From assembly GCF_000145295.1 (NCBI RefSeq), contig NC_014408.1, forward strand, positions 780,001-812,000: 32,000 nt of DNA, written 5' to 3'. Below are positions 10,001 through 32,000 of the stretch, one piece after another (position 1 is the stretch's first letter; each line of letters starts with the position of its first letter). The position numbers were made by a program, and so were the translations under genes. Under the pieces are notes generated by a model. It was given only the letters and a program-made list of their open reading frames with translations, searched no databases and had not been told where the DNA came from. This stretch comes from Methanothermobacter marburgensis str. Marburg (GTDB taxonomy: Archaea; Methanobacteriota; Methanobacteria; Methanobacteriales; Methanothermobacteraceae).

Positions 10001-11661
10001 GAGATGCTGGGGTAACCTAACCTTGATGCTGTGACGGTTATTCCTGAAAGCGGTTCACCCAGGAAGTTCCTTATGTAACCCTGCACCCTGCCTGTTTCCT
10101 CCACATCAAGCTGAAGGGTGAAAATTCTGTTCACAGGTAACTCCCAGGGCATTATATCCACGGTGAGGTTCCTGTAACCATCCTTTGAGAATATGAGCCT
10201 CATGAGGTTGGCTGTTGTTGCGTAAAGGTTACAGGCAAATTTACCTGAGCCATTTGTCCTTACTGAACTCCATACAACCGGCTGGTCTGCATTTATGTAG
10301 AGGAGGTCCACCTTAACATTGAATACTGGAACCCCCACGTCATCAACCACGGTACCTTTTATCTCAAGAGGAACTGTAGTTGGAACCAGTGTGACATTGA
10401 CAGTCAGGTTCCGGTCCTCTGTGAGGGTGTACCAGTAGCCGTCCCAGTAGTAGTAGTTAGTGGGGTAGATGCAGACATTCCAGTACTCTGAGGCCGGGCA
10501 GTGTTCAAATACAGCAAGACCATCTGCACCTGTGGTGCCACTGAAACTGTCCGGACCAGAGAGGTAGACGTTCTCACCGGCCACAGGGTTGCCATTAATG
10601 TCAGTAACATTAACCGTGATATTTGAGGGCCAGAGGTCCAGGCGGATGTCCTGGGTTGTGACACCCTCACCCATTAACAGGTAGATGTCTGCGTCACGGT
10701 AGTGTGACAGGTAGGTTTTGAGGTGACCTGAGAGGCCTGATACCAGTTCAGGAAAATTCTGGGTTGTGAAGATGTAGAACCCCTCTGAATTCGTGTCACC
10801 CCATATGGATGTGTATCCAGGGTGTGTGTCAGGCCAGAAGTACAACCTGACACCACGTAACGGTGCACCCGTTGAGTCATAGACGTGACCCTGCAGTGTC
10901 ACAGGAAGCCCCTTCCTTATGAGCCTCACAGTCAGTGACTCACTGCTACCATCAGTGATGGTGAAATTACCGGTGACCGGTACATAGCCGTAGGGCCCCA
11001 TGGTGTAGGTCCAGAGGCCATCGGGGATGTGGTTGAAGAGTGCAACACCATCCGCCCCGGTGACCCTGTAGAGGTAGGCGGGTCCATCAAGCTGGATGCC
11101 CACTCCACTCAGCGGCTCCCCATCCCAGTTCACTACCTTGAAGGATGCTGAGCCGTCATAGTAGCCCATAACGATGTTATGGACATTTTCAGATGACATG
11201 TTCAGGGCTATGACCGCATGGTAGGGCCTGTAGAGTGGGTGGTACGCGCGGATGTCATATGTCCCTGTATCTGAGGGTCCAACACCATAGAAGAGGTAAT
11301 GGCCTCCCTCATCAAGACCCGCTGTCAGCTCAACAGGTTCACCATTCTGGGTGTAGCTGAGGGTAACATCCGCGTATACGAGGTTATCATCGGGGTCACT
11401 CACATAACCCCCCAGTGTGGTTTCATGTTCAAGTTCAATTTCCCTGTAATCCCCTGCCTCAGGGACTGTGAAGGTCTCAGCGTAGGGTTTATACATCCAC
11501 ATCTGCACACTGAGTGTCACAGGCACACCTGATGTGAGGAGGGGGTGGTCATCTGTGCTGAAGGCGTACTCCCCACTGGAACTGGTGTACCTGCTTAACC
11601 GGAATGAGCCTGATTCAAGGACAACCTCGGCGCCCTCAATGGGTGTTCCCCTATCAACCAC
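4012..11661 (-). CDS. Giant surface/adhesin-like protein, main (C-terminal) ORF of a frameshifted gene of about 2,940 aa; ends in a TM anchor
   Basis: 2549-aa ORF. The N-terminal half is many roughly 85-100-aa carboxypeptidase-regulatory-like/Big-type beta-sandwich repeats (recurring G.V.D..G.P..GA.V.L......T.sD..G.Y....L..G.Y). Ig-like and non-repeat modules follow. There are numerous N-x-S/T sequons. The C-terminus is hydrophobic (WLAVSLLVSVLIIGVYGAL) followed by RRRNT. The GTG at 11661 is internal, because the frame stays open upstream to 11748. Confidence 0.9.
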   Translation of the reverse strand: MVDRGTPIEGAEVVLESGSFRLSRYTSSSGEYAFSTDDHPLLTSGVPVTLSVQMWMYKPYAETFTVPEAGDYREIELEHETTLGGYVSDPDDNLVYADVTLSYTQNGEPVELTAGLDEGGHYLFYGVGPSDTGTYDIRAYHPLYRPYHAVIALNMSSENVHNIVMGYYDGSASFKVVNWDGEPLSGVGIQLDGPAYLYRVTGADGVALFNHIPDGLWTYTMGPYGYVPVTGNFTITDGSSESLTVRLIRKGLPVTLQGHVYDSTGAPLRGVRLYFWPDTHPGYTSIWGDTNSEGFYIFTTQNFPELVSGLSGHLKTYLSHYRDADIYLLMGEGVTTQDIRLDLWPSNITVNVTDINGNPVAGENVYLSGPDSFSGTTGADGLAVFEHCPASEYWNVCIYPTNYYYWDGYWYTLTEDRNLTVNVTLVPTTVPLEIKGTVVDDVGVPVFNVKVDLLYINADQPVVWSSVRTNGSGKFACNLYATTANLMRLIFSKDGYRNLTVDIMPWELPVNRIFTLQLDVEETGRVQGYIRNFLGEPLSGITVTASRLGYPSISNITDSSGFYSFDLPAGNYLFTTSSPSHITVSKATTVAPNLIIPVDFELHIKNSVYGRVLHANLDRDPSPLEGAIVELLMDGTSVASTTTDSEGRYEIAAPTSGSYNLTAGLHPYEPASEEVNLQETSALFREIILYPGPYSGIHGTVRDAITGLPLGGVTVTLRRYIGEFVDLEIEVLTGSDGSYSFQSLYPWRTYTLDFEKPSYVPVRDLWFFPGPGEDIEHDQVLQPLLSTMVEGQILCWAGLLQGEVFLDGASMITGPDGRFEFTDIIPGYHVLTAYVSGWAESVYFFLGNGEHLHQDVVFRTFVMDRYPSPGEVLRELQSVGVRLFGGRDGAAATLNLYPGTAPTGTPLPGILSWTGDWLIFTPSSMPPRGPCTARVEVPGEVTATWTFQYLPPTSNPPVITSVTPADGSFFRKPSSLTIKATLINDPGNGLSDYSDITFDGVVIPGTVTGNILTGSWQIMSEVTAEPGRWPLSDGWHTIKVRAFDLQGLYSDYEWKICISNQDGPRIYNASVSPVFSPIHGFMNIFANITEPLSSVYLYFNEGPLNIGTFNENITKCWDGSVNNIRLPDGPVSFHMVGVGMDGYFSNIVYFSTVIDSTGPSITISGPDIFNTRYPEITGFLSDPAGIGGFNVTSSAGTVSYSFSSTSFHVNMEVPSDGYYTLLFNLTDTLGNSRTVAHKILVDTIKPVIKFINPRENDTTRPGTFLSFRLIDNTCSGLARAYLMHKSRKYPAPNPANLEVLLDGQNITDRLIYSERTYIDVVSGNTPYGYDYLASLGSVLVGYNPVPYEYLNSGLHVLKVTVRDRAGNEASDEIHFSTITAIPDITEIDMGMTSGENETLTMIFNVQENSDGGFDKFILEIDGKEIDSIPNVNIGPELYQCTLKYIIKRQFSEGPHTVSLTVIDRRGYRNTLETGFYHLERVPVNLSSVTPRYEYIPDIMVYSGNHTHQLRIDPSSRFLPGSSALYGYCDMDGPSKALLTTSNERSSNRFLPMGGQLSFTVAETPFVDASGAEFLSLWMTDISVETNINWGWGGAILAYFDDGRGYSLLVNGTAGILGFDLLSALNPPAILYAKHEAPWVNWGGIVHDSVASARGADGRLWNNYILKIPHGLNRGHIRVIFVWETVNWFQGSIRDWSSVLKKTVSVSSKIDNVEFIKSVVDSVYPSPREENVPLRPTIWAHFKVPLDPRNFTGNTLQIRTPQGGIINGTAYYDTSTNKGYFTPIEELGGLRNYLGYIGSDIRTIYGRILPKPDPYRWEFQTRIGEARIWQTIRYNGEDYCIFLLWAAGSGGSPSYLPSGSALQSTYGTLLQIHVLKKVGDNYYELGDPDLAYTIFQAAERKAFYSKFIPGYSELVSDSLTEWVEDRADTWSGEALRFLSYLFSNPAPIPDDEDVIKDMIAMILGDGSTATTLTGVQQALSWFSMGISGSSKVNDLVEKLRKMQAEKAGKPFQATVVKDVLKIAELVTGELQFQRELWEFLFKCMWQLRVTEAYRPQLEAILPYTYGSTHEAIEDMLSADINSIQNEIALKVIKHIGVQSFNIIRDKVFEVISKNPYGMVVITTFKVFFALATKFTRWDDVHASTHVALAYANAEDSFYSAWLGHVNTFKLIPSDSVTVYDTSLPALASRLWYASGGNFYDAMVKIGRIVRNWPTSDRESWDKAIASYEIRATDYLKRSSNFIPEVLTSTADIMNLLPLIKVGTAGKPSSIYIGAHSPVALLVTAPDGRRIGYDPTRPEGQRIVNDFGASAFYNSPYSEPQVMLIPAGIGELRIQAFGVDTDSYRITVEVLDEDGNPISGSEWTGNITPGVYKFFSILIDQYGSTYKYDGRAPVIRVTGVSGGGRYTGTVKPLISVADDNLEGWFATLNGKLYTGGPVSSPGVYTLVVRATDGVNVVYSTVIFMIQGVSPVKPPEEGEHGGVRETAAVTAVYTVSGALSEVPSRAVVPPAEMVNVTPTGMRGGYDYTWLAVSLLVSVLIIGVYGALRRRNT

Positions 11662-13454: not shown

Positions 13455-16205
13455 CTATACCCCACAGAAGTTCCTGAACACACACCTTGAGCAGAACTGA
13501 TTCCTGCGGGGCTCGAAGCACTCACTCCTTATTTTCTGAACTGTCTCCTCTATCCTCTCCCTCACAGTGAAGTTGGGGTCGGAGTCAAATGACATCCTCA
13601 TGGAGTCCCTTATTGCGTATGCAGAGAGCCTGTCAAAATTGTATCTGTCCCTCAGTGCATACTCATAGGTCCGGAGCTGGTATTCGAGCCCCATCCTCTC
13701 AATACCCCCATGTTCCCGGGCCTTGAAGTCCACAAGCTCCAGTTCACCCCCAGAGTTCCTGATGATGAGGTCGGTCCGACCCTCTATTATTATATCATCG
13801 TCGGGTATGGAGAATGGCTCCTCCACCGAGACAACCTCCTCTATATGGTCCCTGCTGTCATGGTAGTAGTTGAGGAGTTCCCTTTCAAGGCGCCTCTTTT
13901 TCACCTCATCGTCTCTCCCCATGGGTATCCAGCACCTTTCAACAAGTTCCCTTATGAATGCCCCGTTTATATCCTCTGAATTCTTCATTGCAAGGTGTAA
14001 CTCTTCGAGGCACCTGTGGAGTATGATACCGTAGCGCTGCATGAATGTTTCAGGGTAGACAAAGCCGTAATGGTAGATCATCATGTACCTGAAGGGGCAC
14101 TCCTCGTAGGTGAAGAGGGCCGAGAAGTTGATCCTCAGGGGTTCCTCTGCCCACTCCCTCTCAAGGCACCCCTCAATGGATGTGCACTCACACTCGTATA
14201 TCCCGCACTTCTCCCTTAACTCGGTGATGTATGGTGAGATCCCCACCTTCCTTGTGTTGATTCTGGGTGCGGTGGAGATGATTAGCGCGTCCTGTGCCCT
14301 CGTCATTGCAACGTAGAAGAGCCTACGGTCCTCATCCTCGGGTTCCCCAGATGAGAGAAGCAGTTCCTGGGGGATGGGCACCAGTTCCTTTCTCCTTCTC
14401 TTTATACCAGGGAACCTTCCCTTTATGACCGAGCAGATGAACACAACCGGAAACTCAAGACCCTTTGCCTGGTGGACTGTCATCACCTTCACTGATGCCG
14501 GGTCCTCCAGGACGGCCTCGTCATGGTGGAGGTGCTGGGGGAGGAGGTAGAGGTACCAGAGGATGTCCTGTATCCTGGCCCCCGGCTTTATGGTCTCGTA
14601 CTTGTCTATGAGTGAACTGAGCTTTGCAAGGTTGAATATCCTTGCCCTGCTCTTGTCACTACCATCAAGGAGGAGTCTTCTGAGGTAACCCGTCACCTCC
14701 AGTATCCTGTAGAAGGTCTGGAGGACACTCAGTGAGCCCTGTTCAAGTTCATCCCTGATCCTGTTGAGGCCGAGTATCTTCTCTGCATCCTCACCCCTGA
14801 TACCCGCAGCCTCGAGTTCCTGGATTGAGGTGAAATCCGAGAGTTTCACATCCCTCTCAAGGGATTCAAGGGCCTCCAGTGTTTCCTCACCCAGATCAAG
14901 GAAGTCGCCCCGGAACATGGAGATGTTCCACCAGCCACCCCATCTTCCACTGAATTTATCGTCGTAATCAGGGGGGTCCACGTAGGCCAGGAAGTAGAGC
15001 ATCCTCCTTACCTCGTACCTTTTGAGGAATGACCCGTCACCGCGGACTATGTAGGGGATCCCCTCCCTTCTGAGCTCCCTCAGTATCTTATCTGCATGGT
15101 AGCGCACGCTCCTGAATAGAAGTGCAACATATCCATAGTCGGGGATTTTGCCTGTGGATTTAAGTTTCTTTATCAGGGATACTATGTTCCGGGCCTCGGA
15201 GTTAACATCACGGCTCCTGAGTATCACCACGTCTGTTCCGCCGCCCCTCACAGGCTTTATGGTTTTCTGGTAGTGCCGCTCCCCCCTCATGAACCTGTCG
15301 GCTGTGAGCACTATCCCGGCCCTTGACCTGAAGTTGTCCTCAAGGAACACCACCTCTGCATCGTATTTGTCCCTGAACCTTATGAAGTTCTCGGGGGTGG
15401 CGCCCCTGAACCCGTAGATGCTCTGGTCCTCATCCCCAACGACGCATATGCTTGATTTGGGTTCTGCTATCCTCCTGAATATCCTCTCCTGGATGGGACT
15501 TGTGTCCTGGTACTCGTCGATCATTATGTACCTGTATTTATTTCTGACAGATTCAAGGACATCCTCGTTTGATTTAAGGAGGAGGCAAACCTCCTTTTCA
15601 AGTCCTGGGAAGTCTATCTTCTTCTCCTCCCTTAGTGCCTTCAGGTATTGGCTGTAGCAGGCTGCCATGCCATGGTATCTCTTCTTATCAGGGTAACGTT
15701 TTTTGAGGGCCTCCATGAGTTCGTCAGGGTCCACGCAGTTCTCGGTGCACCTGTTGAAGAATTCGATTGCCTCATGGACCTCACCCATCTTCATGAAGCT
15801 GTTCAGGCCGATCCTGTAGAAGACTGATCTAAGGAACATCAGCTGGGACTCCTCGTCCAGGATCTCAAATCCGGCTCCAAGGTCATGTTCCTCGGGGTGC
15901 TCCCTCAGTATGGTGCTGCAGAATGAGTGTATGGTTGATATCTGCATGAGTTCGGCGTCCAGTCCAACGCAGTTTATGAGCCTTGACTTCAACTCATCTG
16001 CGGCCTTCTCTGTGAAGGTTATAACAAGTATATTCTCCGGGCTAACCCCCTTTCTTTTAACAAGGTAAGCTGTCCTCTCAACAAGAACCCTTGTTTTCCC
16101 GGCACCAGGTCCTGCCACAATTACAAGTGGCCCGTCGGTCTTCTTAACGGCCCTCTTCTGGTTCTCTGTACACGCCTCCCCTTTCCTGCAGAGTGATCCT
16201 GTCAT
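13455..16205 (-). CDS. UvrD/PcrA-type SF1 helicase fused to a C-terminal Cas4/AddB-type PD-(D/E)xK nuclease with a 4-Cys cluster
   Basis: 916-aa ORF. Helicase motifs: AGPGAGKT (Walker A), IMIDEYQDTSP (motif II), VVGDEDQSIYGFRGA (III), VMTVHQAKGLEFPVVFI (V), RRLFYVAMTRAQDAL (VI). Nuclease part: ECPFRY (Cys1), GRTDLI...LELVDFKA (D...ExK-type), QLRTYEYAL (QxxxY), CSRCVFRNFC (C-x2-C-x5-C). Confidence 0.9.
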   Translation of the reverse strand: MTGSLCRKGEACTENQKRAVKKTDGPLVIVAGPGAGKTRVLVERTAYLVKRKGVSPENILVITFTEKAADELKSRLINCVGLDAELMQISTIHSFCSTILREHPEEHDLGAGFEILDEESQLMFLRSVFYRIGLNSFMKMGEVHEAIEFFNRCTENCVDPDELMEALKKRYPDKKRYHGMAACYSQYLKALREEKKIDFPGLEKEVCLLLKSNEDVLESVRNKYRYIMIDEYQDTSPIQERIFRRIAEPKSSICVVGDEDQSIYGFRGATPENFIRFRDKYDAEVVFLEDNFRSRAGIVLTADRFMRGERHYQKTIKPVRGGGTDVVILRSRDVNSEARNIVSLIKKLKSTGKIPDYGYVALLFRSVRYHADKILRELRREGIPYIVRGDGSFLKRYEVRRMLYFLAYVDPPDYDDKFSGRWGGWWNISMFRGDFLDLGEETLEALESLERDVKLSDFTSIQELEAAGIRGEDAEKILGLNRIRDELEQGSLSVLQTFYRILEVTGYLRRLLLDGSDKSRARIFNLAKLSSLIDKYETIKPGARIQDILWYLYLLPQHLHHDEAVLEDPASVKVMTVHQAKGLEFPVVFICSVIKGRFPGIKRRRKELVPIPQELLLSSGEPEDEDRRLFYVAMTRAQDALIISTAPRINTRKVGISPYITELREKCGIYECECTSIEGCLEREWAEEPLRINFSALFTYEECPFRYMMIYHYGFVYPETFMQRYGIILHRCLEELHLAMKNSEDINGAFIRELVERCWIPMGRDDEVKKRRLERELLNYYHDSRDHIEEVVSVEEPFSIPDDDIIIEGRTDLIIRNSGGELELVDFKAREHGGIERMGLEYQLRTYEYALRDRYNFDRLSAYAIRDSMRMSFDSDPNFTVRERIEETVQKIRSECFEPRRNQFCSRCVFRNFCGV

Positions 16206-18112: not shown

Positions 18113-19857
18113 ATGGCAGACTTCAGGTGCACGGTATGCAATTACATCTTCCATGAGGAAAATGAGGGTGAATTCGACTCACTCCCGGTGGAATGGCGCT
18201 GCCCGGTATGCAACGCACCAAAGGACGCGTTTGTGAGGCTGGGTTCCAGATCCATGGGGACAGGGAGGACGGTCTCTGATGTTTTTATAGAACAGCTTGC
18301 AGCCTGGGGAGTCAGGTACGTCTTCGGGATCCCGGGTACATCAACACTGGGACTTGTTGATGCAATACGAAGGAACAGTGACGTGAGGTACATACAGGTG
18401 CGCCATGAGGCAGCAGCGGCATTTATGGCCTCTGCCTATGGCAAACTCACAGGAAACCCTGCGGTCTGCCTGGCAGTCGCTGGCCCCGGGGCATCGAACC
18501 TCATAACCGGACTCCTGGACGCGGCCCTTGACAGGGCGCCGGTTATAGCTGTGACAGGACAGGTTGAAACCTACAGGATCGGGACAGGTGCAAGTCAGGA
18601 GATAGACCAGCACAGCCTCTTCGAGTCCCTGACAGTGTACAACATGACCATCATAAGCCCTGATGAGACCCCGGAGATTGTGGGGGAGGCCCTGAAACAC
18701 GCCATCATTGAGAGGGGTGTTTCACATATCGATGTCCCCAGGGACGTTTAGACAATGGAGTGCACTGCCGAAGTGAGGCCGCTGGCCGGTTCGATCGCCC
18801 CGGTATCGGTGACCGTTCCCAGACATCAGCTGAAGGATGCCGCATCCTTAATTGATTCTGCAGAGCGTCCCATAATAATCGCTGGTTTCGGGGCGCTTGA
18901 AGCGGCAGAGAGTGTTGTTGAACTTGCAGAGAGGATAGGGGCCGGTATTGTGACCACATTCCGGGGTAAGGGGGTTGTTGATAACCACCACCCCCTTTAC
19001 CTGGGCTGCCACGGGAGCCTGGGGTCCACTGCGGCTGCAGAGGCTGTTAGAAAAGCTGATCTCCTTATTGTTATCGGATCATCCTTCTCTGACCTCACCC
19101 AGCTTCCCCCTGGGAGGATCCTGCAGATTGACATAGACCCCTCATGATCGCAAGGCGCCACCCGGTTGAGATGGGCCTCGAGGGTAGATCATCACACACA
19201 GTACCTGAGCTTCTCTCCATGACCCGTGAGAGGAGGAGGGAGTCCTACAGGGCAGAGCTCAGGGAACTCAGGGCAAGGTGGCTGGATCTTCTTGAATCTG
19301 AAATCGACCCATCCTCAAGGCCCATAAGGCCACAGTACATAATGGCTGTCCTCAATGACCTCCTTGATCAGGGGGCAGTCATAGCACTTGACGTTGGTGA
19401 GAACGGCTGGTGGTTTGGAAGGAACTTCCAGATGAGGGGCACACAGAGGCTCATCTTCTCGGGGTACCTTGGTTCAATGGGTTTCGGGCTTCCAGCTGCT
19501 ATTGCAGCGCAGCTGGAGTTCCCTGACAGGGAGGTTGCATGTATAACAGGTGATGGAGGGTTTTCCATGGTCATGGCTGAATTTCTCACCGCGGTTAAGT
19601 ACCATCTCCCTGTGAGGGTCTTCGTACTCAACAACAGGAGCCTCGGGATGATAATGCAGGAGCAGCTGGTTGAGGGTTTTCCCACCTGGCAGACCGAACT
19701 GCAGAACTTTGACTTCGCAGAGTTCGCTGAGAACTGTGGCGGTCGGGGAATCCAGGTCACCGAACCAGACAAACTGGAGGATGCTGTTTCAGATGCCCTC
19801 GGAACAGATGGACCGGTTGTCGTGGACATCGAAACCGATCCGAGGCGCTTCATCTGA
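18113..19857 (+). pseudogene. Rubredoxin-domain fusion to a thiamine-diphosphate enzyme (pyruvate oxidase/acetolactate-synthase family), disrupted by an in-frame TAG and one frameshift
   Basis: Three consecutive ORFs (18113..18751, 18755..19147, 19144..19857) cover the TPP_N, central and TPP_C modules in order. Recognisable motifs are GIPGTS..., ..PVIAVTGQV.., and GSMGFGLPAAIAAQL...ITGDGGF..NN (the TPP-binding motif). The N-terminus is rubredoxin-like (CTVC..(x24)..CPVC). TAG at 18749-18751 is in frame with the next ORF (HIDVPRDV*), and a Gln usually follows PxDV in this family. The frame changes at about 19140-19150 (IDIDPS / IARRHPVEMGLEG). Confidence 0.8.
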
Positions 19858-24071: not shown

Positions 24072-24320
24072 TCATGACGCTGCAAGGATGAAAGCCATCA
24101 TAACGGGGAGAAGGCAGATTTTAACCACCTCAAACTCCATGAGGGGTATGAACTCCTTTATGAACCTCACAGCCACGATTATGGCACCACTTACAAGTCC
24201 CATGGACACAAATCCCCAGACCCCTGATGCGAACCTTGTGAGCATGTAGTTCCTCACAGAAACCGCTGCTGCAAGGGTTATGAATATGAGGGATGCGGCC
24301 TTTAGGAGAACTAGTATCAT
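24072..24320 (-). CDS. Small 3-TM membrane protein, unknown function
   Basis: 82-aa ORF. Its ATG overlaps the upstream stop (ATGA at 24317-24320), indicating translational coupling. It has three hydrophobic helices. Confidence 0.65.
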   Translation of the reverse strand: MILVLLKAASLIFITLAAAVSVRNYMLTRFASGVWGFVSMGLVSGAIIVAVRFIKEFIPLMEFEVVKICLLPVMMAFILAAS

Positions 24321-24601
24321 GTCTCAGCCTCCAGTTTCCTGTTGGACCTCAGTGAGGCATAGAGGAACATTGCCGCTGCAAGCATGATGAAAACCCACTC
24401 AATGGTCCTCATAAGATCAAATGCCATTATCTCCCTCATAAAACCGAACACAGTTGATATAAAGAGCATGAAAACCGCGATGGTCATGGGGATCCACCTG
24501 CCGTCATGGGCAGAGACCCTCAGCATGTAGATGAGGCTCAGACCGGTTATAACTGTGGATATGAGCTGGGCCACCTGAAATTCACGTCCATAGGGGATCA
24601 T
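24317..24601 (-). CDS. Small 3-TM membrane protein, unknown function
   Basis: Start taken at the ATG at 24601 (MIPYGREF...), which has GGTGAT 3 nt upstream. The tracked GTG start at 24655 lies inside an 18-bp repeat. It has three hydrophobic helices. Confidence 0.65.
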   Translation of the reverse strand: MIPYGREFQVAQLISTVITGLSLIYMLRVSAHDGRWIPMTIAVFMLFISTVFGFMREIMAFDLMRTIEWVFIMLAAAMFLYASLRSNRKLEAET

Positions 24602-24651
24602 CCTATCACCATGTACATATATGTCCACTGGATAATTTAGTTCTTTCCCTA

Positions 24652-24723
24652 ACACGGTTCAGGAACTTCACTAGAAACAGTTTATCATTGTATTGTCCCC
24701 TCATCACACGGTTCAGGAACTTC
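24652..24723. repeat. 18-bp perfect direct repeat acacggttcaggaacttc (24652-24669 and 24706-24723) flanking 36 bp
   Basis: Read directly. The right-hand copy contains the last codons and the TGA stop of the histidine kinase. Confidence 0.9.
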
Positions 24724-26680
24724 TCTCAGGAAAGGTTATCCTGAAAACCGCCCCTCCCTCATTGAAGGTTTCAAGTTCACCGTCAAGCTGACCAACAAGG
24801 GCCCTCACAAGGGTCATCCCCAGTGAATCCGATGAACCTGAACTGAAATCTTCTGGAAGCCCCTGGCCTGTATCCCTGTAATCCAGGAGGTACACCCCAC
24901 CTTTAAGGTTAAAGCTGATTATGATTCTCCCCTTGCCATCAGGGAAGGCGTACTTTACTGAATTTGTGACAAGTTCACTGACTATGAGGGCCAGGGGGAC
25001 CGCCAGCTCAATATCAAGGCTCAGATCATCCACTCTGATGTCTGATACGATACCCGAGGCCCCGTAGGTTGAGAGGATTTCAGTTGCAAGGCGTGAGATG
25101 TAGTTCCTCATGTTTATCTCTGAGAGGGTCTCTGACTGGTAGAGGTTCTCGTGTATCATGGCCATGGACTTTATACGGGTCTGGCTCTCCTCAAATATCC
25201 TGAGGTCCTCAGCGTCCCTTATGTAGGGCTTCTGCATGTTCAGGAGACTTGATATTATCTGCAGGTTATTCTTTACACGGTGGTGTATCTCCCTTATAAG
25301 TGTCTCCCTCTCCCTGAGGGCGGATATCAGTGATTCCTCATATCTCCTGGCCTCTGTAACATCCCTCACAAGCACAGCTCCAAGACCAGGCATGATGCTG
25401 AATCTGAAGATTCTGACCACCCTCTCACCCCTTATGAGGAACTCATCGTTTCCACGGGTCTCAAGGATCACCTCGGAGCATATCTCAGGCATCTTCCTTC
25501 CCAGAGCATCATCCCTTCCAGTTGAGGTTATCTCCTCAAGTGCCCGGTTCCAGTAGATTACAGTATCTGATTCATCGGTTATTGCGATACCATCTGATAT
25601 GTTATCTGCAACTCCCCTGAACCTCATCTCACTTTCACGGAGCCTCTCTGTGGCCCTCCTCTGGAGGCTTATATCAGTTGCAATGAATACGAACCCAATG
25701 GGCTCCCTGAAGCGCCCCCTTATGGGGGATGCTGTGAGGAGAACGTCAGTTGTCCTTCCGTCCGATGAGATTATCCTGGTCTCCATTTCAGATGAGCTAA
25801 AACCAGAGACCACCTCCCTGAGCATCTCCCTGTCAGATGGGTCAAACAGATCCCAGAATGGTTTACCCCGCAGGTCTTCTGAGCTGTAGGAGAGCTTCTC
25901 ATGGACGCTCCTGCCGCAGCTTGTAACCCTCCCCTCAAGGTCTGTTATGATGAGGAAGTTGGGCATAACATCAGCTATGCTCCTTGCAGCGATGGCAGGT
26001 GAGAGTTCTGGAAAGTCGTACCTCCAGACCCCGTAGGCAATGAAGAGCAGGCCAATGGATAGCATGGTCTGGGTGAACTCCGGGAAGACCAGTCCCATAA
26101 GGTCCCTGAAGATGAAGTCAGTTGTGAAGCTCACAATCAGAGGCACGAAAAGACCCGTGAATATGTAGAGGGACTCCCTCTTCCTGTACCCTCGGGATCT
26201 CAGGTAGTCCCTGAGGGTGATGGCTGCCGCTGTCAGTGTCAGGGTAACGGTCCAGAGCGAGAAGAGTGCAAAGACCAGAGGTGGTTCCGGCAGGGCGTAG
26301 GTCCAGCCATAATATGTGAGGAGTGGACCGGAAATGAAGAGGTCAGTGAGGAGTCCCGTTAATATGAAGATAAGTGCAGGTGCATAGATTACTGCAAGTG
26401 CCGGTTTACCCACCCTTCTTCGTGTGTAGGTGAGGGATATGTGGAGGAGAATTGCAGGTATAATGGGCCAGAGGAGGCTCAGCCTGAGCCATATTAGGGC
26501 ATCGTCGGGTGCTGCCACTGTCCGGTAGACGAACTCGGTGAATGCCATGAATGATACAGCAACACCAAGGTTGGATACAAGCAGATTGAGGTTATTACGG
26601 GGGTTCCTGTAGTAGATGAATACCGATGTGTAGAATGCAATCACAGATGCAAGGAGGGATATGATTGAGTAGGGGTTCAT
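24713..26680 (-). CDS. Sensor histidine kinase: N-terminal 6-7 TM sensor (HisKA_7TM-like), two PAS-like domains, HisKA_2 and HATPase
   Basis: H-box REIHHRVKNNLQIISSLL (HisKA_2 type), N-box ELVTNSVKYAF, G-boxes DTGQGLP and SLGMTLV. The N-terminal 230 aa or so are polytopic. Start taken at the second ATG (26680), preceded by GGAGG. No response regulator gene is adjacent. Confidence 0.85.
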   Translation of the reverse strand: MNPYSIISLLASVIAFYTSVFIYYRNPRNNLNLLVSNLGVAVSFMAFTEFVYRTVAAPDDALIWLRLSLLWPIIPAILLHISLTYTRRRVGKPALAVIYAPALIFILTGLLTDLFISGPLLTYYGWTYALPEPPLVFALFSLWTVTLTLTAAAITLRDYLRSRGYRKRESLYIFTGLFVPLIVSFTTDFIFRDLMGLVFPEFTQTMLSIGLLFIAYGVWRYDFPELSPAIAARSIADVMPNFLIITDLEGRVTSCGRSVHEKLSYSSEDLRGKPFWDLFDPSDREMLREVVSGFSSSEMETRIISSDGRTTDVLLTASPIRGRFREPIGFVFIATDISLQRRATERLRESEMRFRGVADNISDGIAITDESDTVIYWNRALEEITSTGRDDALGRKMPEICSEVILETRGNDEFLIRGERVVRIFRFSIMPGLGAVLVRDVTEARRYEESLISALRERETLIREIHHRVKNNLQIISSLLNMQKPYIRDAEDLRIFEESQTRIKSMAMIHENLYQSETLSEINMRNYISRLATEILSTYGASGIVSDIRVDDLSLDIELAVPLALIVSELVTNSVKYAFPDGKGRIIISFNLKGGVYLLDYRDTGQGLPEDFSSGSSDSLGMTLVRALVGQLDGELETFNEGGAVFRITFPERSS

Positions 26681-26719
26681 ATACGCCTCCATGCGAATCT
26701 AAATGGCGGTATGCTTGCA

Positions 26720-29700
26720 TCAAACTGGTCTGATGGTATCATCCTCAACCACCACCTCACCCCTCCGGGCCATCTCCTCTATGACCTTTCTGATACCTGT
26801 GGCAGTCTTCCTGCTGGTATTTTTAAAGCCAAACATCCTTGAGACCCGTGTCACAACCTCATCAACCTCTGAGGTGGACCTGAGGGCTATTCTCACAGCC
26901 TCCTCAATCTCCATTGGGGATATGAGTGAGATGTCAACCCTGCCAGTCCTTCTCCTCACGGTGACCGGCATGGACTCTGTGAGGAGCAGGAAGTCACCGC
27001 TCCGCTTGATGTTACCGTTGTTCTCTGCCATCTCAATTGCAGAGTTTATTATGCTCCTCACCCTTCGCCCTGCTCTTCTAAGTCCACATGACTCTCTTAT
27101 ACGCCTTATAACCTCCTCAACATGCACAGGACCCTCCATTGATACTATCTCACTCACAACGGATGATATCACGGGTGTCGGGTTTTTGTAGAGGTCGTCG
27201 GGTTTTCTTAACTTATCGGTGCTGTATTCGACGTAACTGGCAACAGCCTCCCCCCTGGATTCATCGGAAAGCTCCAGTGGTTCTGCTGCATCCTGCTCTT
27301 CTATGGTGGACTCATCTAAATCCTCATCAAACTCAGGGGGTTCAGGGTCATCAACCTCCACCGGAATCCCCACCTCAGTCACCTCCTGTAGCTCCCTGGA
27401 TTCCCTGGTTTTATCAACTATCTCAGAGAGGCCATCTGCAACCTTCCTCTGTGTCTCATCCCTGTTCCGGTACCAGTCCGAGGACCAGAGGTGGATGATG
27501 TTCCAGCCCAGGTTCCTGAGGATCTCCTCCCTGAGCCTGTCACGGTCCCTTGCAACCTCCGCCCTGCTGTACATCTCACCATCGGTGAGGATCCCTGCAA
27601 TGTACCTGCCAGGGTCATCGGGGTCCTTAACCGCGAAGTCAACCCTGAAACCGGCGCACCCGACGCCCCGGTCAACCTCGAATCCCTGGTCAACCAGGAA
27701 CTCGTATACCGAATCCTCAAAGAGGCCCTGTGAATTACTGGTGGAATCTGAGTCAAGCACACCTGTCTCTGCGTACCTGAGGAACCTCTTAAGTGCCCTG
27801 ACACCGAAGGGGGTTCCAGGTCCGGTTTTAAGGTCCGATGCCCTGAAGTTGGTGAAAACCACACACTTCTCACGGGCCCTGGTTATGAGGACGTTCAGCC
27901 TCCTCTCACCGCCCTCCTGGTTCAGTGGCCCGAAGTTGAGGGACATCCTTCCGTTCTCATCAAAGCCGTAGCCCACACTGATGAAGATAACGTCCCTCTC
28001 ATCCCCCTGTATGGTTTCAAGGTTCTTTATGAAGAATGGCTCATCGGTCTCCTGATTTATGAGCCGCTCAAGTTCAGGGTTCTCCCGAAGCCTCTCCTCG
28101 AGGGCCTCAAGTATGGCGTTCATCTGGGCAACTGAGAATGTGCCCACACCAAGACTCCTTGATGTGCCGTACCTCATGAAGTGTTCCTCTATGGCCTCAA
28201 CAACGGCTGCGGCCTCGAGGGGGTTGGATGAGGTTCTCCCGCGCTCATATACCGTGTCTGGAAGGTACCTGAGGTGGAGTCCCAGTTCCCCATCCTCCCT
28301 TGAGGGTGAAGGGTACACCAGGAGCCTGTTGTCATAGAACTCCTGGTTTGACACCGCGATCAGGGACTCGTGCCGGCTCCTGTAGTGCCACCTCAGCATC
28401 CTCACAGGGAAGCTCCTCTTGCAGAGGTGGAGTATGCTCTCAATGTCAGCCGCTGTGGCCACGTCCTCAGAGTCCTCCTCAGATGTGAGCATCTGGTCAA
28501 AGAAACTGGTTGGTGGGAGCTGGTTGGTATCACCCATCACCACAGCGTTCCTGGCCCTTAGGAATGCCCCCAGGGCGTCCTCCGGTTTAACCTGTGATGC
28601 CTCGTCGAATATCACCACATCAAACTGGAGTTCACTGCTCCTCGGGTCAAGGTACTGTGCAATGGAGAGGGGGCTCATCATGAAACAGGGCTTTATCCTC
28701 TTTATAACGCCACCTGCAAGTTTAAGGAGTTTCCTGAGGGGCATATGCCCCCTCTTACGTGTGAATTCACCGCTGAGGATGCTCTCCTCAGAGTCTGGAG
28801 CCGCCCCTCCAAAGACTGTGGGCATGTTGCTTGTGAGCTGATGTATGAGCCTCTTCCTGTTGAGCTCGATTATCCTGGAGTCAAGCTCCCTGAACTCCCT
28901 TATCCTGGCCTCATGGAGGTCACCAATGAAGGTGTAAAGGGCTGGTATCTCCCTGAAGGCCCTCTCAAGGAGGGCATCTGCAAGGTTACCCTCCATTGCA
29001 TGCCTTATATCCTCCATGCTGATTATCCCAGACTCTATTAGTGGTATGAATGCGGCCCCCCGCGTCTTCATGCAGAGCCTCTTCTTCTCAAGGTACTGGG
29101 ACCAGAGGGGGAGGAGGTTGAGGGCCTCCCTCCAGGCCTTAACCCTTGACCTCCAGGCGCGGAACGGAACCTCCTCCGGTGCTGAGTTGAATATGACATG
29201 GGCATGGGTGTTTATCCTTGTCTGGAGCTTTGAAAGTTTATCCTGGAGTTCACTGTGGATTTCGAGGATTTCATGGAATTCAGAGAGAAGCCTATCACCG
29301 TCAAGGCCATCAGAGATGCACTCCAGTGCCCTCTCTGATATGAGACCATCGCTGTGGAGGTCCCTGAACCTCACTATCCACTCCGCGGTGGCCCTCAGGT
29401 CCTGGATGGATGGGTTTTCCGGGTTCCACATTGAACCAAAGAACCTCTCGGCCACCCCACTGTACCTTTCAAGTTCCCCCCTCAGGCTCATGACATCAAT
29501 CAGGTTCTCAAGGTCCTCCACGATCTCATAGTCATTCTCAGGGGCCCTTCCAACGTAAAGGGCTTCTATCTCATTCCTTACCTTCCTGTACCTGCCGCTC
29601 AGGAATTTTATCCTGCTGGATGACTCCTTGAGGTACTCCCTGAGGAGGGCCTCCAGATCCACGCTGTGGACAGATTCATGGAACCTGTCGAGTATCTCCC

Positions 29701-31510
29701 TCCTGCGGGTGTATGCCTCGAGTTTATCAAGAAGGGTGAAGGCGTCGGCCCTGTAGCGGTCCCAGATCTCTGATTCAAGGACGCCAAGGTCGAAGGGGCG
29801 TGACTCTGCAACCACAGAGACCACCTCCCCGAGCCTCTCAAGGTCCCCTGTATTCTTAACTGGGCTGAAGCCGTACCTCTCCTGGAATTCCCTGAGTGCT
29901 GCCATCAGTTTATCGGTAATCTTCATCACCGACTCCAGGAGGACCTCAAGTTCCCTCACATCGGAGGGTAGCATCATCCCGGGGTCGGTGCCTGACCACG
30001 GGTTCTCATGGAGGGGTGGGAGGAGTTCTGCGAGTTTTGCAAGGTTTCTCAGTTCCACCAGGGCCTCGTCCCACTCATCGGGGGTTATGGTCTCAGGTGA
30101 GGGTATCCTGACGAATGGCAGCTCACCATTGAAGTATCTCTCTGAGCTCTCCTTCATCCCGAATAACTGGAAGGGTGAGAGCTGTATGCTGTACAGTGGC
30201 TCATGGAGGGCTCTCCTGTACTCGTTGAGCTCATCGCGCAGCTTCTCAACCCTCCTGAATTCCCTCTCGGCGTCTGGCCTCTCTGCCTCTGCCTCCATGA
30301 GGGTTGACTCCAGTTCATTGAGGACGTCCTTCTTCCTGGCCTTGTGGGAGTGGAGTTCAAGGCAGAACCTCCCGAGGCCTATGGAGTCAAGCCTGCTCTT
30401 CACAACCTCGAGGGCCGCCATCTTCTCACTCACAAAGAGTACCGTCTTTCCTGCGGCCATGAGCTCGGCTATGAGGTTCACTATGGTCTGGGACTTCCCT
30501 GTCCCTGGTGGCCCCTCAACCACAAGGTTCTTACCCGCCTTTACATCCTCTATAACCGCGATCTGGGATGAGTCGGCGTCAACCACGTGGTAGAGGTCCT
30601 CGTAGGGGATGCTGTCTATGTCCACCTCCCCGTCGTCCTCATCGATTTCAATGGAGAATAGGGCCTTAAGGAGGGGGCGTTCAACTATCTCATCCCAGTT
30701 TGAGTAGGATGCCGGGTCAAGGTCCATGTACATGAGGAACTTGGTGAATGAGAAGAAACCCAGCTGGACCTCATCGGTGACCCCCCAGCCATCCATGGAT
30801 TTCACCGCGTCCTCAACCTTCCTGAGGTACTCCGAGATCCCTGACGGACCCTGGGGCATCCTGAATTCAGGTAGTTCGATTCCCTCCTCCCTGAGCCTGG
30901 CCTGGAGTGACATGTTGGTTATGATCTCGCTGCCATCCCAGCGTAGTGAGAATGATGAGCCCGCCCTTCGCCTCTCAAGGACCACCGGGACGAGAACCAG
31001 GGGGGCCCTCCTGATGTCAGGTTCATCTGCGGCCATCCACTCAAGGAAACCCAGGGCGAGGTAGAGTATGTTGTAGCCCTGCTCCTGGATCATCGTCCTG
31101 GCCCTCTGGTTGATGTAGAAGAGCCTCCTCTGGAGTTCAGATTCTGTGAGGTCGGTCAGTAGGACGTTCTCATCATCGGGTTTAAGGTCCTCCAGCTCAT
31201 CACCGGGGTCAAGCTCCCCTTCACTTTCAGGGTCCTCCAGCTCGTTAACGGTATCCACTTCACCTTCAGGGTCCTCCAGGTCATTACCGGGGTCAGTCTC
31301 TTCTTCAGGTTCCCTCCTGGGGGCCAGTTTCATCTTACCCCCGTTGAGGACAAGGTATGTGTATATGTATTCAGGGTCGTGGTTCACAACCTCAACCGTC
31401 CTTGACCTTGGCCTGAAATTCAGGAGCTGGTTTCGCATTGTGAGGTCAAGGAGTTTCTCCCTCAGGTTCTCAAATTCCCTCTCGATGATCTTCCTCGCAG
31501 ATTTATCCAT
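26720..31510 (-). CDS. Large SF1 (Upf1-like) helicase-nuclease: DUF4011-like N-terminus, AAA_11/AAA_12 helicase, Vsr/DUF559-type (REase_MTES_1575-like) nuclease, DUF3320-like C-terminus; Hhe-like
   Basis: 1596-aa ORF. The N-terminus KLLDLTMRNQLLNFRP is DUF4011-type. Helicase motifs: Walker A EGPPGTGKSQT, VIFDEASQV (II), GDTNQLPP, RWHYRSRHESL, QGDERDVIFIS, LNVLITRAREK. The nuclease module is VYEFLVDQGFEV..GFRVDFAV....ILTDGEMY...RDRDRLREEILRNLGWNIIHLWSSDW. The C-terminal PVHVEEVIRRI..CGLRRAGRRV is DUF3320-like. Confidence 0.9.
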   Translation of the reverse strand: MDKSARKIIEREFENLREKLLDLTMRNQLLNFRPRSRTVEVVNHDPEYIYTYLVLNGGKMKLAPRREPEEETDPGNDLEDPEGEVDTVNELEDPESEGELDPGDELEDLKPDDENVLLTDLTESELQRRLFYINQRARTMIQEQGYNILYLALGFLEWMAADEPDIRRAPLVLVPVVLERRRAGSSFSLRWDGSEIITNMSLQARLREEGIELPEFRMPQGPSGISEYLRKVEDAVKSMDGWGVTDEVQLGFFSFTKFLMYMDLDPASYSNWDEIVERPLLKALFSIEIDEDDGEVDIDSIPYEDLYHVVDADSSQIAVIEDVKAGKNLVVEGPPGTGKSQTIVNLIAELMAAGKTVLFVSEKMAALEVVKSRLDSIGLGRFCLELHSHKARKKDVLNELESTLMEAEAERPDAEREFRRVEKLRDELNEYRRALHEPLYSIQLSPFQLFGMKESSERYFNGELPFVRIPSPETITPDEWDEALVELRNLAKLAELLPPLHENPWSGTDPGMMLPSDVRELEVLLESVMKITDKLMAALREFQERYGFSPVKNTGDLERLGEVVSVVAESRPFDLGVLESEIWDRYRADAFTLLDKLEAYTRRREILDRFHESVHSVDLEALLREYLKESSSRIKFLSGRYRKVRNEIEALYVGRAPENDYEIVEDLENLIDVMSLRGELERYSGVAERFFGSMWNPENPSIQDLRATAEWIVRFRDLHSDGLISERALECISDGLDGDRLLSEFHEILEIHSELQDKLSKLQTRINTHAHVIFNSAPEEVPFRAWRSRVKAWREALNLLPLWSQYLEKKRLCMKTRGAAFIPLIESGIISMEDIRHAMEGNLADALLERAFREIPALYTFIGDLHEARIREFRELDSRIIELNRKRLIHQLTSNMPTVFGGAAPDSEESILSGEFTRKRGHMPLRKLLKLAGGVIKRIKPCFMMSPLSIAQYLDPRSSELQFDVVIFDEASQVKPEDALGAFLRARNAVVMGDTNQLPPTSFFDQMLTSEEDSEDVATAADIESILHLCKRSFPVRMLRWHYRSRHESLIAVSNQEFYDNRLLVYPSPSREDGELGLHLRYLPDTVYERGRTSSNPLEAAAVVEAIEEHFMRYGTSRSLGVGTFSVAQMNAILEALEERLRENPELERLINQETDEPFFIKNLETIQGDERDVIFISVGYGFDENGRMSLNFGPLNQEGGERRLNVLITRAREKCVVFTNFRASDLKTGPGTPFGVRALKRFLRYAETGVLDSDSTSNSQGLFEDSVYEFLVDQGFEVDRGVGCAGFRVDFAVKDPDDPGRYIAGILTDGEMYSRAEVARDRDRLREEILRNLGWNIIHLWSSDWYRNRDETQRKVADGLSEIVDKTRESRELQEVTEVGIPVEVDDPEPPEFDEDLDESTIEEQDAAEPLELSDESRGEAVASYVEYSTDKLRKPDDLYKNPTPVISSVVSEIVSMEGPVHVEEVIRRIRESCGLRRAGRRVRSIINSAIEMAENNGNIKRSGDFLLLTESMPVTVRRRTGRVDISLISPMEIEEAVRIALRSTSEVDEVVTRVSRMFGFKNTSRKTATGIRKVIEEMARRGEVVVEDDTIRPV

Positions 31511-31571
31511 TCAGATTCTCCCTCAACAGTTATATCCCGCACCGAGGTACTGGGCCCTACATTCAGATTCT

Positions 31572-31579
31572 ATTATAAA
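31572..31579 (-). promoter_or_regulatory. TATA-like box (TTTATAAT on the minus strand) upstream of the helicase-nuclease gene
   Basis: It lies about 62 nt upstream of the ATG at 31510, in the only sizeable intergenic gap of this block. GAGGGAG lies just upstream of the start codon. Confidence 0.35.
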
Positions 31580-31606
31580 GATCATTAGCTGTCTGCACTC
31601 ATCCCA

Positions 31607-31933
31607 TCAGATCTTCTTCTCCTTGGGTGCTGTGGTGGCTGCAACCCTGTAGAAGACATAGACAAGGACGATGTCAACCAACCATATTATGGAGGCTATT
31701 ATCTCATCATTCCAGGGTATCGGGTGGAATAGGTCAATGAGGTCCATCACCCTCGTGGCCGAGAAGAATATCATTGAAACAGCGAATACCCTCAGGAGGA
31801 ATGTGGTCTCATTGATGTTGGAGAAGAGCATTCCCAGGGCCGCCTCACTGTATCTCAGGTTGTTGAAGAGTATCCTCGCTGCAAAGTACAGGGTCAGGAT
31901 GGGTGGTATCATGATGAGCCAGCCAGGGACCAT
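31607..31933 (-). CDS. Small 3-TM membrane protein, unknown function
   Basis: 108-aa ORF. Its ATG overlaps the stop of the upstream partial gene by 1 nt (TGATG). It has three hydrophobic helices and a lysine-rich tail. Confidence 0.6.
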   Translation of the reverse strand: MVPGWLIMIPPILTLYFAARILFNNLRYSEAALGMLFSNINETTFLLRVFAVSMIFFSATRVMDLIDLFHPIPWNDEIIASIIWLVDIVLVYVFYRVAATTAPKEKKI

Positions 31934-32000
31934 CAGGCATCACCCCCCATGACCGAGGCCAGGAGTCCCACCGCTACAAGGAGAAAGAGGGCGTTGAGGT
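31933..32000 (-). CDS. Partial CDS (C-terminal end only): hydrophobic/membrane protein
   Basis: The reverse-strand frame reads ...LNALFLLVAVGLLASVMGGDA* with its stop at 31933-31935, coupled to the next start. The gene extends beyond the right edge. Confidence 0.4.
   Translation of the reverse strand, partial: LNALFLLVAVGLLASVMGGDA

Follow-up and report, generated by a model that had tools for sequence, protein, structure and literature searches.

The gene examined here lies in a 32,000-nucleotide stretch of Methanothermobacter marburgensis str. Marburg DNA (contig NC_014408.1, positions 780,001 to 812,000 of the forward strand), called the window below, and codes for a large DUF4011 helicase that a preliminary description, made from the letters alone, had put forward as an Hhe-like single-gene defence candidate. 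The gene proved real: as had been described, it is one uninterrupted open reading frame (ORF) of 1,596 amino acids (aa) on the minus strand, with its ATG at 31510 and its stop codon at 26720-26722. By exact-sequence look-up we found the product to be identical to M. marburgensis ADL58475.1 / WP_013295699.1, which RefSeq names 'DUF3320 domain-containing protein', and the attribution of the protein to a thermophilic methanogen was thereby borne out. A TATA-like element and a Shine-Dalgarno-like sequence upstream of the ATG suggest putative expression signals of its own in 31518..31580 of the minus strand. No non-coding RNA or tRNA was found in the window. The positions of the gene, its parts and the features next to it are collected in Table 1.

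Table 1. Features of the DUF4011 gene and its surroundings in the window (SF1B, superfamily 1B; AF2, AlphaFold 2; pLDDT, predicted local distance difference test; 7TM, seven-transmembrane; nt, nucleotides).
Feature	Positions	Strand	Basis
Whole gene, ProA/PDC-S37-like DUF4011 helicase, 1,596 aa	26720..31510	-	ORF translation, exact-sequence look-up, family profiles
Putative TATA-like element CTTTATAATA	31580-31571	-	read from sequence by eye
Putative Shine-Dalgarno-like GAGGGAG before ATG	31524-31518	-	read from sequence by eye
N-terminal DUF4011 region, residues 1-310, alpha/beta	30581..31510	-	Pfam, AF2 model
Acidic disordered loop inside DUF4011, residues 65-115	31166..31318	-	pLDDT <50
First part of helicase RecA1, residues 311-437, Walker A GPPGTGKS and motif Ia	30200..30580	-	AAA_30/AAA_19/AAA_11
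Insertion of ~510 residues between motifs Ia and II, residues 438-950	28661..30199	-	AAA_11 profile gap ~66 to 210
Remainder of SF1B core, residues 951-1225, motifs II-VI	27836..28660	-	AAA_11 and AAA_12, IGHMBP2/Dna2/Sen1 alignment
Vsr/EDxHD-fold MTES_1575 domain, residues 1263-1375	27386..27724	-	Pfam, Foldseek, MAFFT alignment, Vsr residue map
Degenerate active-site motif L1308-T-D-G-E-M-Y-S1315	27566..27589	-	alignment and motif census
Acidic disordered linker, residues 1376-1422	27245..27385	-	pLDDT 30-49, not conserved
C-terminal tandem winged-helix tail holding DUF3320, residues 1423-1596	26723..27244	-	Pfam, AF2, Foldseek
7TM-PAS-HisKA_2 histidine kinase, co-directional, 27 nt after the stop	24713..26692	-	Pfam
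Conserved upstream small membrane ORF, 108 aa	31607..31933	-	syntenic in five Methanothermobacter loci

All Pfam matches in the window protein were above the curated cut-offs, and they confirmed the order that had been read from the translation, that is DUF4011, SF1B helicase, Vsr-like domain and DUF3320, each with a profile match of its own. DUF4011 covers residues 19-206 (E 5e-44), the P-loop region was matched by AAA_11/AAA_30 at about 314-375, AAA_11 matched again at 958-1002, AAA_12 covers residues 1030-1221, MTES_1575 residues 1264-1359 (E 7e-29, 100 bits) and DUF3320 residues 1438-1486 (E 6e-17). The translation itself displays the helicase motifs: GPPGTGKS (333-340), DEAS (969-972), GDTNQLPPT (993-1001), YRSRHES (1043-1049), QGDERD (1168-1173) and GERRLNVLITRAR (1201-1213). 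The earlier claim of a complete SF1B set also stood, with motifs I, Ia, II, III, IV, V and VI all intact and invariant across a 10-sequence alignment spanning 47-81% identity. The nearest solved helicase cores, found as sequence matches in the PDB, were IGHMBP2, Upf1, Dna2 and Sen1.

The regions of the protein differ in how well they are predicted and conserved. For the N-terminal 310 residues the AF2 model had a pLDDT of 64 overall, with core blocks at 75-90, and no credible fold match was found for them in the PDB or BFVD; when the same residues were queried against a library of representatives at 50% identity, the DUF4011 domain was present in 6,349 cluster representatives. The acidic loop inside this region is only 2-25% identical between species, compared with 80-92% for its flanks. 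The first part of RecA1 aligns to motif I of IGHMBP2 and Upf1. The long insertion that follows matched no Pfam family and gave weak coiled-coil-type matches alone (LmuB/mad8); it is not alignable to Hhe and is 20-22% identical to ProA. The remainder of the helicase core, residues 951-1225, is the best conserved portion of the whole protein.

In the AlphaFold model of residues 1225-1596 (mean pLDDT 76.6) the Vsr-like part is a confident alpha/beta domain (pLDDT about 80-90), which Foldseek placed with 3R3P, the catalytic domain of I-Bth0305I, and with 3HRL, the DUF559 protein NGO0050 (probability 1.00, TM 0.75, where TM is the template modelling score). Since a sequence search of the PDB with the nuclease domain returned spurious de novo TIM-barrel matches alone and no solved nuclease, the Vsr fold is assigned on this structure comparison. 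The C-terminal tail was modelled with a pLDDT above 90 as two helix-helix-helix-strand-strand (H-H-H-E-E) units and resembles SelB WH2-4 (Foldseek probability 0.96-0.97). Both placements agree with the published descriptions of MTES_1575 as a Vsr-fold nuclease and of DUF3320 as a winged helix-turn-helix (PMC3710099). The linker between the two domains, 47 residues long here, has grown to 670-940 low-complexity residues rich in D, E, S and K in Methanobrevibacter proteins P0099, P0049 and P0022, and this expansion explains why Methanobrevibacter orthologues reach 2,100-2,500 aa.

The protein was then compared with the models of the named families. The names ProA (NCBIfam NF058533, 'anti-phage protein ProA') and PDC-S37 (PADLOC) are used here as taken from the model names alone, and Hhe is represented by NCBIfam NF042953 and PADLOC PDLC02194; NCBIfam sets cut-offs of 1500 for ProA and 2000 for Hhe, and none is given for the PADLOC models. 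PDC-S37 was the best-scoring family model and was matched end to end (1691 bits, unrounded 1690.8; residues 7-1592 against profile positions 4-1543 of 1550). On ProA the protein scored 1388 bits in one stretch (residues 9-1563 against positions 356-1902 of 1903), on NCBIfam Hhe 954 bits in three stretches, and on PADLOC Hhe 686 bits, with the best stretch at 827-1364. It thus stayed below the curated equivalog cut-off of ProA and below that of Hhe, for which its coverage was also broken. For comparison, the genuine Hhe of Klebsiella and E. coli reached 2735 bits on NCBIfam Hhe, and a 2,221-aa protein from a conjugative plasmid of P. aeruginosa reached 2372 bits on ProA and covered the whole profile. 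The bacterial colinear homologues scored 1521-1570 on ProA; those of Azospirillum and Hymenobacter (1,596 and 1,609 aa), which BLASTP aligned end to end to the window protein at 35-36% identity, had 1564-1570, above the cut-off, and the other Methanobacteriaceae orthologues had 1322-1399.

With ProA the window protein shares the colinear series of DUF4011, split SF1B core, MTES_1575 and DUF3320, the same Pfam set as in three proteins that exceed the ProA cut-off. It differs from ProA in lacking the N-terminal extension of about 355 positions of the P. aeruginosa-type protein, in the nuclease motif (ILTDGEMYS instead of IECDGxxYH) and in being encoded by a chromosomal, core and syntenic gene, whereas ProA is plasmid- or island-borne. 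The likeness to PDC-S37 is a full-length match to the hidden Markov model of a candidate: PDC entries are single-gene candidates predicted by 'guilt by embedding' and are mostly unvalidated (PMC12988326).

The relationship to Hhe is one of homology, as had been proposed, with the order DUF4011, SF1 helicase and MTES_1575 common to both polypeptides; the alignment, however, is restricted to two blocks, 113-431 and 827-1374, with 41-42% identity. Hhe, reportedly a system from Gao et al. 2020, has 1,911 aa, a longer, non-alignable insertion and an intact IECDGAAYH motif, and it lacks the DUF3320 tail, so that the architecture called essentially that of Hhe was right for DUF4011, helicase and Vsr-like domain and wrong for the C-terminus. 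Hhe is also an accessory gene: of 5,426 complete E. coli genomes 309 carry it, as do conjugative plasmids of Klebsiella, and the Klebsiella plasmid protein is at least 99% identical to 304 of the 309 E. coli chromosomal copies. By the curated models the Hhe-like label does not hold, ProA and PDC-S37 being the better matches. Judged from these comparisons, the window protein very probably belongs to a ProA/PDC-S37 branch of the DUF4011 helicase-nuclease family, sister to Hhe; its scores leave it slightly short of the curated limit of ProA and exclude it from Hhe.

To examine the nuclease active site, we mapped the residues of the window protein in a MAFFT alignment with Klebsiella Hhe and four ProA-type proteins and compared them with the active-site residues listed for Vsr and I-Bth0305I by Taylor et al. 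(PMC3239194). Four of the six positions are retained and are invariant in the alignment of window-protein orthologues: E1265 (Vsr E25 / I-Bth0305I E170, a possible catalytic Glu), D1291 (Vsr D51 / I-Bth0305I D196, the essential metal ligand), D1310 (Vsr H64 / I-Bth0305I N208) and D1322/D1324 (Vsr D97 / I-Bth0305I D222). The other two are lost. S1315 stands in place of the general base (Vsr H69 / I-Bth0305I H213), and L1308 occupies the position of Vsr F62, where the homing-endonuclease group has a conserved extra acidic residue. Bacterial Hhe and ProA proteins read G-I-E-C-D-G-x-x-Y-H at this site, with ECDGA[AMT]YH in 4 of 4 aligned bacterial ProA-type proteins, and the window protein reads G-I-L-T-D-G-E-M-Y-S. 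The window protein shares the fold of the Vsr/EDxHD nucleases, but not their complete catalytic set: S1315 takes the place of the His, and Leu1308 that of the further acidic residue which marks the EDxHD, Hhe and ProA groups. The Vsr-like PD-(D/E)xK module of the preliminary description was thus correct as to fold, with an active site that is incomplete at two residues conserved in Hhe and ProA. Degenerate catalytic residues, which had been named there as something that would refute the candidate, were found in part, namely Glu to L1308 and His to S1315, with the metal-binding Asp kept.

The Hhe mutant E1731A was reported to abolish defence (bioRxiv 10.1101/2022.06.16.496414). E1731 of that study most probably corresponds to the Glu of IECDG, which is E1727 in the 1,911-aa RefSeq protein, because the numbering is offset by four residues and the next nearest Glu lies 17 residues away.

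The motif was followed through 149 proteins of at least 1,300 aa plus 92 loci. LTDGEMY[SR] was present in 36 of 36 Methanothermobacter proteins, TTDGKMY[SA] in rumen and gut Methanobrevibacter and [TAG]CDGP[IM]YQ in some Methanobacterium, while ECDG..YH was kept in the nearest Methanobacteriaceae clade (57-63% identity), in bog Methanobacterium and in Methanolobus. The orthologue of Methanobacterium alcaliphilum reads ECDGAMYH. Intermediate states, with the Glu kept and the His lost, also exist. The Glu and His positions are free to vary among lineages, whereas the adjacent D, G and Y never change. The MTES_1575 Pfam score of the window protein was 100 bits, compared with 120-127 for the bacterial proteins.

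The domain as a whole, however, is well conserved. Its identity is 88% within the genus, equal to the whole-protein average, and 48-56% between genera; the two acidic loops alone drift, and all folded domains are conserved. As judged from these identities, the Vsr-like domain is under purifying selection despite the lost Glu and His, and the idea that the nuclease domain is simply decaying was rejected, its conservation being equal to that of the rest of the protein. The pattern reads as a nuclease whose catalysis has been lost or substantially altered, in a domain kept for another purpose, which would most simply be DNA binding.

Orthologue presence was taken from the genomes present in the exact-sequence clusters. 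Full-length orthologues were found there in M. marburgensis, several M. thermautotrophicus strains, M. defluvii, M. wolfeii, CaT2, EMTCatA1, THM-2, KEPCO-1, KEPCO-2, K4 and DSM 3267; the DUF4011 gene was present at the same locus in every Methanothermobacter species sampled, and no fewer than ten named species or strains carry its 4.8-kilobase (kb) ORF intact. Split or truncated copies were seen in the 1997 Delta H entry (1,157 aa, P0146), in THM-1 (900 aa, P0152) and in one M. thermautotrophicus strain (677 + 111 + 807 aa, P0140/P0141/P0144). Newer M. thermautotrophicus assemblies encode full proteins of 1,591-1,593 aa, and those of the Delta H type (1,591-1,592 aa) are without the 1997 truncation.

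Between Methanothermobacter species the protein is 77-90% identical, much like the products of the flanking genes. A scan of one genome per species gave 554 confirmed loci, and the best 80 of the 554 were nearly all from Methanobacteriaceae; within Methanobrevibacter the flanks are conserved across 20-35 loci. The bacterial relatives are often on plasmids and chromids, and phage-borne copies are practically absent (4 of 50,697 records). On the evidence of these sequences and their order, the gene is vertically inherited, chromosomal and syntenic across Methanothermobacter. The picture of a sporadic island gene does not fit: it is a core, syntenic gene with housekeeping and DNA-repair neighbours.

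Five Methanothermobacter loci share one gene order, in which an SNase gene, an mrfA-like and an mrfB-like gene and two small membrane ORFs precede the DUF4011 gene, and an optional histidine kinase with two small ORFs, DUF2238, ATP-cone and ABC transporter genes follow it. The mrfA-like helicase matched PDB 6ZNP (B. subtilis YprA/MrfA) over its full length (E 1.6e-147), and the mrfB-like product, encoded after it, matched PDB 8UN9, 'Exonuclease MrfB' (E 4.7e-23). Both genes lie outside the window (L085 52-3458, in M. marburgensis just past 32000; L081 5775-9181; L numbers denote loci of our set) and are co-directional with the DUF4011 gene. MrfA and MrfB (YprA/YprB) of Bacillus subtilis are separate repair proteins; their homologues adjoin the DUF4011 gene and are not part of its ORF. 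Such a pair was found upstream and co-directional in 10 loci, from Methanothermobacter, the 57-63% clade, Ca. Methanorudis and Methanobrevibacter cuticularis, and none was found near five bacterial ProA/Hhe loci. We infer a functional link between the DUF4011 gene and the mrfAB homologues from their adjacency.

Other lineages place the gene beside other repair genes. In 24 Methanobrevibacter loci uvrC follows on the same strand, starting some 20 nt past the stop codon, among genes for inosine monophosphate (IMP) dehydrogenase, histidine biosynthesis, a cation-efflux protein and a PfkB kinase. In a Methanomicrobiales metagenome-assembled genome and in Methanobacterium UBA279 (L017, L063) an XPD/DinG-like helicase (DEAD_2 + Helicase_C_2) is directly upstream.

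The 108-aa membrane ORF is the last of the two between the mrfB-like gene and the DUF4011 gene. Small hydrophobic ORFs (~82-112 aa) form two pairs, all on the minus strand (31607-31933 with 31936-32000, and 24317-24655 with 24072-24320), which enclose the DUF4011 gene together with the kinase and show conservation within the genus; the four ORFs gave no family match and no significant similarity to each other. The histidine kinase is present in marburgensis, THM-2 and DSM 3267 and absent in M. wolfeii, and it is possibly co-transcribed with the DUF4011 gene without being an obligatory partner. PAS-HisKA_2 kinases adjoin the DUF4011 gene in several distinct clades, upstream or downstream (L012 8650-9702, L019 16180-18030), and no response regulator was seen near them.

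Downstream of the DUF4011 gene the window contains the histidine kinase, transporters, ferritin, a UvrD-PD-(D/E)xK helicase and surface proteins, and it is not a defence island. Neither a methyltransferase nor another self/non-self partner was found near the gene in the window or in the sister Methanothermobacter loci. Beyond the SNase gene lie BREX genes (bacteriophage exclusion; BrxC, BrxL) in DSM 3267 (L084 1-4445), a McrB-like ATPase in M. wolfeii (L082 1-1131) and, in THM-2, a 588-aa ORF made of BrxP- and BrxC-like pieces (L081 3106-4872). In the sister species the BREX or McrB-like genes are 5-9 kb upstream of the DUF4011 gene, and its immediate neighbours are the mrfAB-like genes, the membrane ORFs, the kinase and the transporters. 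It is possible that the DUF4011 block borders a defence hotspot lying upstream of the SNase-mrfA block. In M. marburgensis, two short-read assemblies obtained independently both break off some 50 nt before the mrfA-like gene (5' ends of L085 and L091), which hints at repeat or variable sequence there.

A comparable position has been described in P. aeruginosa, where a core DUF4011 gene, found in every isolate, flanks the defence hotspot cDHS1 (Johnson et al. 2023, PMC10250203). The likeness, a large DUF4011 core gene bordering a variable, defence-rich region, is one of domain and position, and the archaeal block differs in also holding the mrfAB homologues. The homologue of Methanolobus psychrotolerans (L070 12439-17796), which keeps ECDGAKYH, has a different context: a UvrD-like helicase gene precedes it, and DUF3375, a 193-aa ORF and an SMC-like ATPase follow, in a set resembling Wadjet/JetABC. 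This context is defence-island-like, unlike that of the Methanobacteriaceae loci.

Three other genes of the window were noted. A rubredoxin-thiamine pyrophosphate (TPP) enzyme gene at 18113-19857 on the plus strand is broken into three ORFs, once by a TAG in frame at 18752-18754, where the THM-2 orthologue has Gln, and once by a frameshift near 19140. Methanothermobacter THM-2 and M. wolfeii have it as one ORF of 581 aa, and in M. marburgensis it is either a pseudogene or a sequence error. The 916-aa protein encoded at 13455-16205 (minus strand) is a UvrD-type helicase fused to a PD-(D/E)xK nuclease, with generic GajB-like PADLOC matches, and the 2,549-aa protein encoded at 4012-11661 (minus strand), with CarboxypepD_reg and Ig-like repeats, is presumably a surface protein.

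Taken together, we tentatively favour, at close to an even call, the reading of the protein as a vertically inherited ProA-type translocase that takes part in DNA surveillance or repair and whose nuclease is impaired or altered. A classic role in which the protein cuts phage DNA is doubtful, because the gene is a core gene beside DNA-repair genes and two key catalytic residues are lost. The SF1B motor would translocate along a single strand at the expense of ATP, presumably in the 5'-3' direction as in other SF1B enzymes, and the protein would dock on DNA through its winged-helix tail and Vsr-like domain, to act in the surveillance or processing of damaged or aberrant DNA. With its own nuclease chemistry lost or strongly altered, partner nucleases, for example the MrfB-like exonuclease or UvrC, would do any cutting that is needed. 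The protein would descend from the same stock as the mobile anti-phage ProA/Hhe proteins and be a domesticated relative of them, not a canonical nuclease-dependent defence gene.

Several observations weigh against this reading. The nearest named families, ProA, Hhe and PDC-S37, are all filed as anti-phage, and the ProA cut-off was missed narrowly. The equation of Hhe E1731 with the IECDG Glu depends on the four-residue offset. Since Phe stands in Vsr itself where the Glu has been lost here, this loss alone is no proof of inactivity, and E1265, Y1314, H1340 and D1322/D1324 could support an altered chemistry. The repair-gene juxtapositions amount to about three independent ones, not dozens, as loci within a genus share ancestry, and the presence in all Methanothermobacter refers only to the genomes represented in the clusters. 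In sister species the stretch past SNase varies and is rich in defence genes, so that the gene borders a hotspot; the Methanolobus homologue adjoins Wadjet-like genes, the bacterial homologues have defence-island-like neighbours, and core chromosomal defence genes exist. The role proposed for the protein rests on sequence, models and gene context.

Alternatively, the gene may still work by itself against viruses or plasmids, as a ProA/Hhe-type system that has been retained in the core genome and in which the helicase senses foreign or replicating DNA and defends either alone or with the Vsr-like domain cutting at a modified active site; we consider this possible, though rather doubtful. The end-to-end PDC-S37 match and the near miss of the ProA cut-off speak for it, as do the colinear bacterial homologues named ProA in defence-like or mobile settings, with a SIR2 neighbour, a conjugative plasmid, and WYL and PD-(D/E)xK neighbours, and the Wadjet-like genes next to the Methanolobus homologue. 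It would also account for the four invariant active-site positions and the purifying selection on the Vsr-like domain, and the BREX or McrB-like genes in the bordering variable region of sister species fit it, as does the P. aeruginosa core DUF4011 gene that likewise flanks a defence hotspot (PMC10250203). However, the general-base His is absent, and so is the Glu that is most probably essential for defence by Hhe, and the free variation of both positions beside the fixed D, G and Y points to relaxed constraint on catalysis. It is also atypical for a defence gene to be inherited vertically, in synteny and at the pace of its neighbours, and no methyltransferase or other self/non-self partner is nearby. 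M. marburgensis, moreover, serves as laboratory host for the virus psiM1/psiM2, which the DUF4011 gene therefore does not block. The PDC systems themselves are computational candidates and mostly unvalidated (PMC12988326).

An RNA or RNA:DNA-hybrid helicase of the Upf1/Sen1 type, which would clear away R-loops or stalled transcripts and use its Vsr-like and winged-helix domains to bind nucleic acid, appears improbable. The nearest solved cores IGHMBP2, Upf1 and Sen1 do have RNA or R-loops as substrates, the tail with its tandem winged helices is similar to SelB WH2-4, which binds RNA, and a nuclease site without its general base suits a binding role. However, the helicase core also matches Dna2, a DNA enzyme, the recurring neighbours are all DNA-repair genes and not RNA-processing genes, and the characterised relative Hhe defends against phage through a DNA-nuclease-type domain; the substrate cannot be deduced from sequence. 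That the gene is a decaying relic of a once-mobile defence gene, with no current function, is very improbable in spite of the lost canonical nuclease residues and the split copies in some strains (THM-1; one M. thermautotrophicus strain in three pieces), as ten or more named species or strains have the ORF unbroken, no helicase motif varies, conservation extends to every folded domain with drift confined to the disordered loops, and the 1997 Delta H truncation is gone from newer Delta H-type assemblies.

Returning to the surveillance or repair translocase, one history that could have led to it, which we put forward as speculative and on the unlikely side, is that a mobile ProA/Hhe-family helicase-nuclease was captured by an ancestor of the Methanobacteriaceae and became a core genome-maintenance factor. 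It would have lost the Glu and His repeatedly and independently in several lineages, and it would work with the MrfA/MrfB homologues, UvrC or the XPD-like helicase.

Part of this was already known: the protein is in RefSeq and its family is modelled by Pfam, PADLOC and NCBIfam, so that the Hhe-like archaeal candidate was largely known and partly wrong in detail. What is new concerns the archaeal branch, which lies outside the curated ProA and Hhe boundaries, is core and syntenic, is linked to mrfAB, uvrC or XPD-like genes and has repeatedly lost the Glu and His. Annotation tools file the very large DUF4011 helicase family wholesale as 'anti-phage' (Hhe, ProA, PDC-S37), yet a whole archaeal branch of it does not look like a defence gene: it is vertical, sits among repair and housekeeping genes and is without the nuclease residues that its validated relatives need. 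Caution is due before such matches are counted as defence systems in surveys of archaeal 'defensomes'. The Methanobacteriaceae orthologues, both with and without ECDG..YH, offer natural variants for dissecting the contribution of the nuclease domain, and through its neighbours a defence-type helicase gains a testable link to repair by MrfAB and UvrC, in organisms that are now genetically tractable. If the capture scenario is true, the gene would be a documented archaeal case of a defence protein domesticated for DNA repair.

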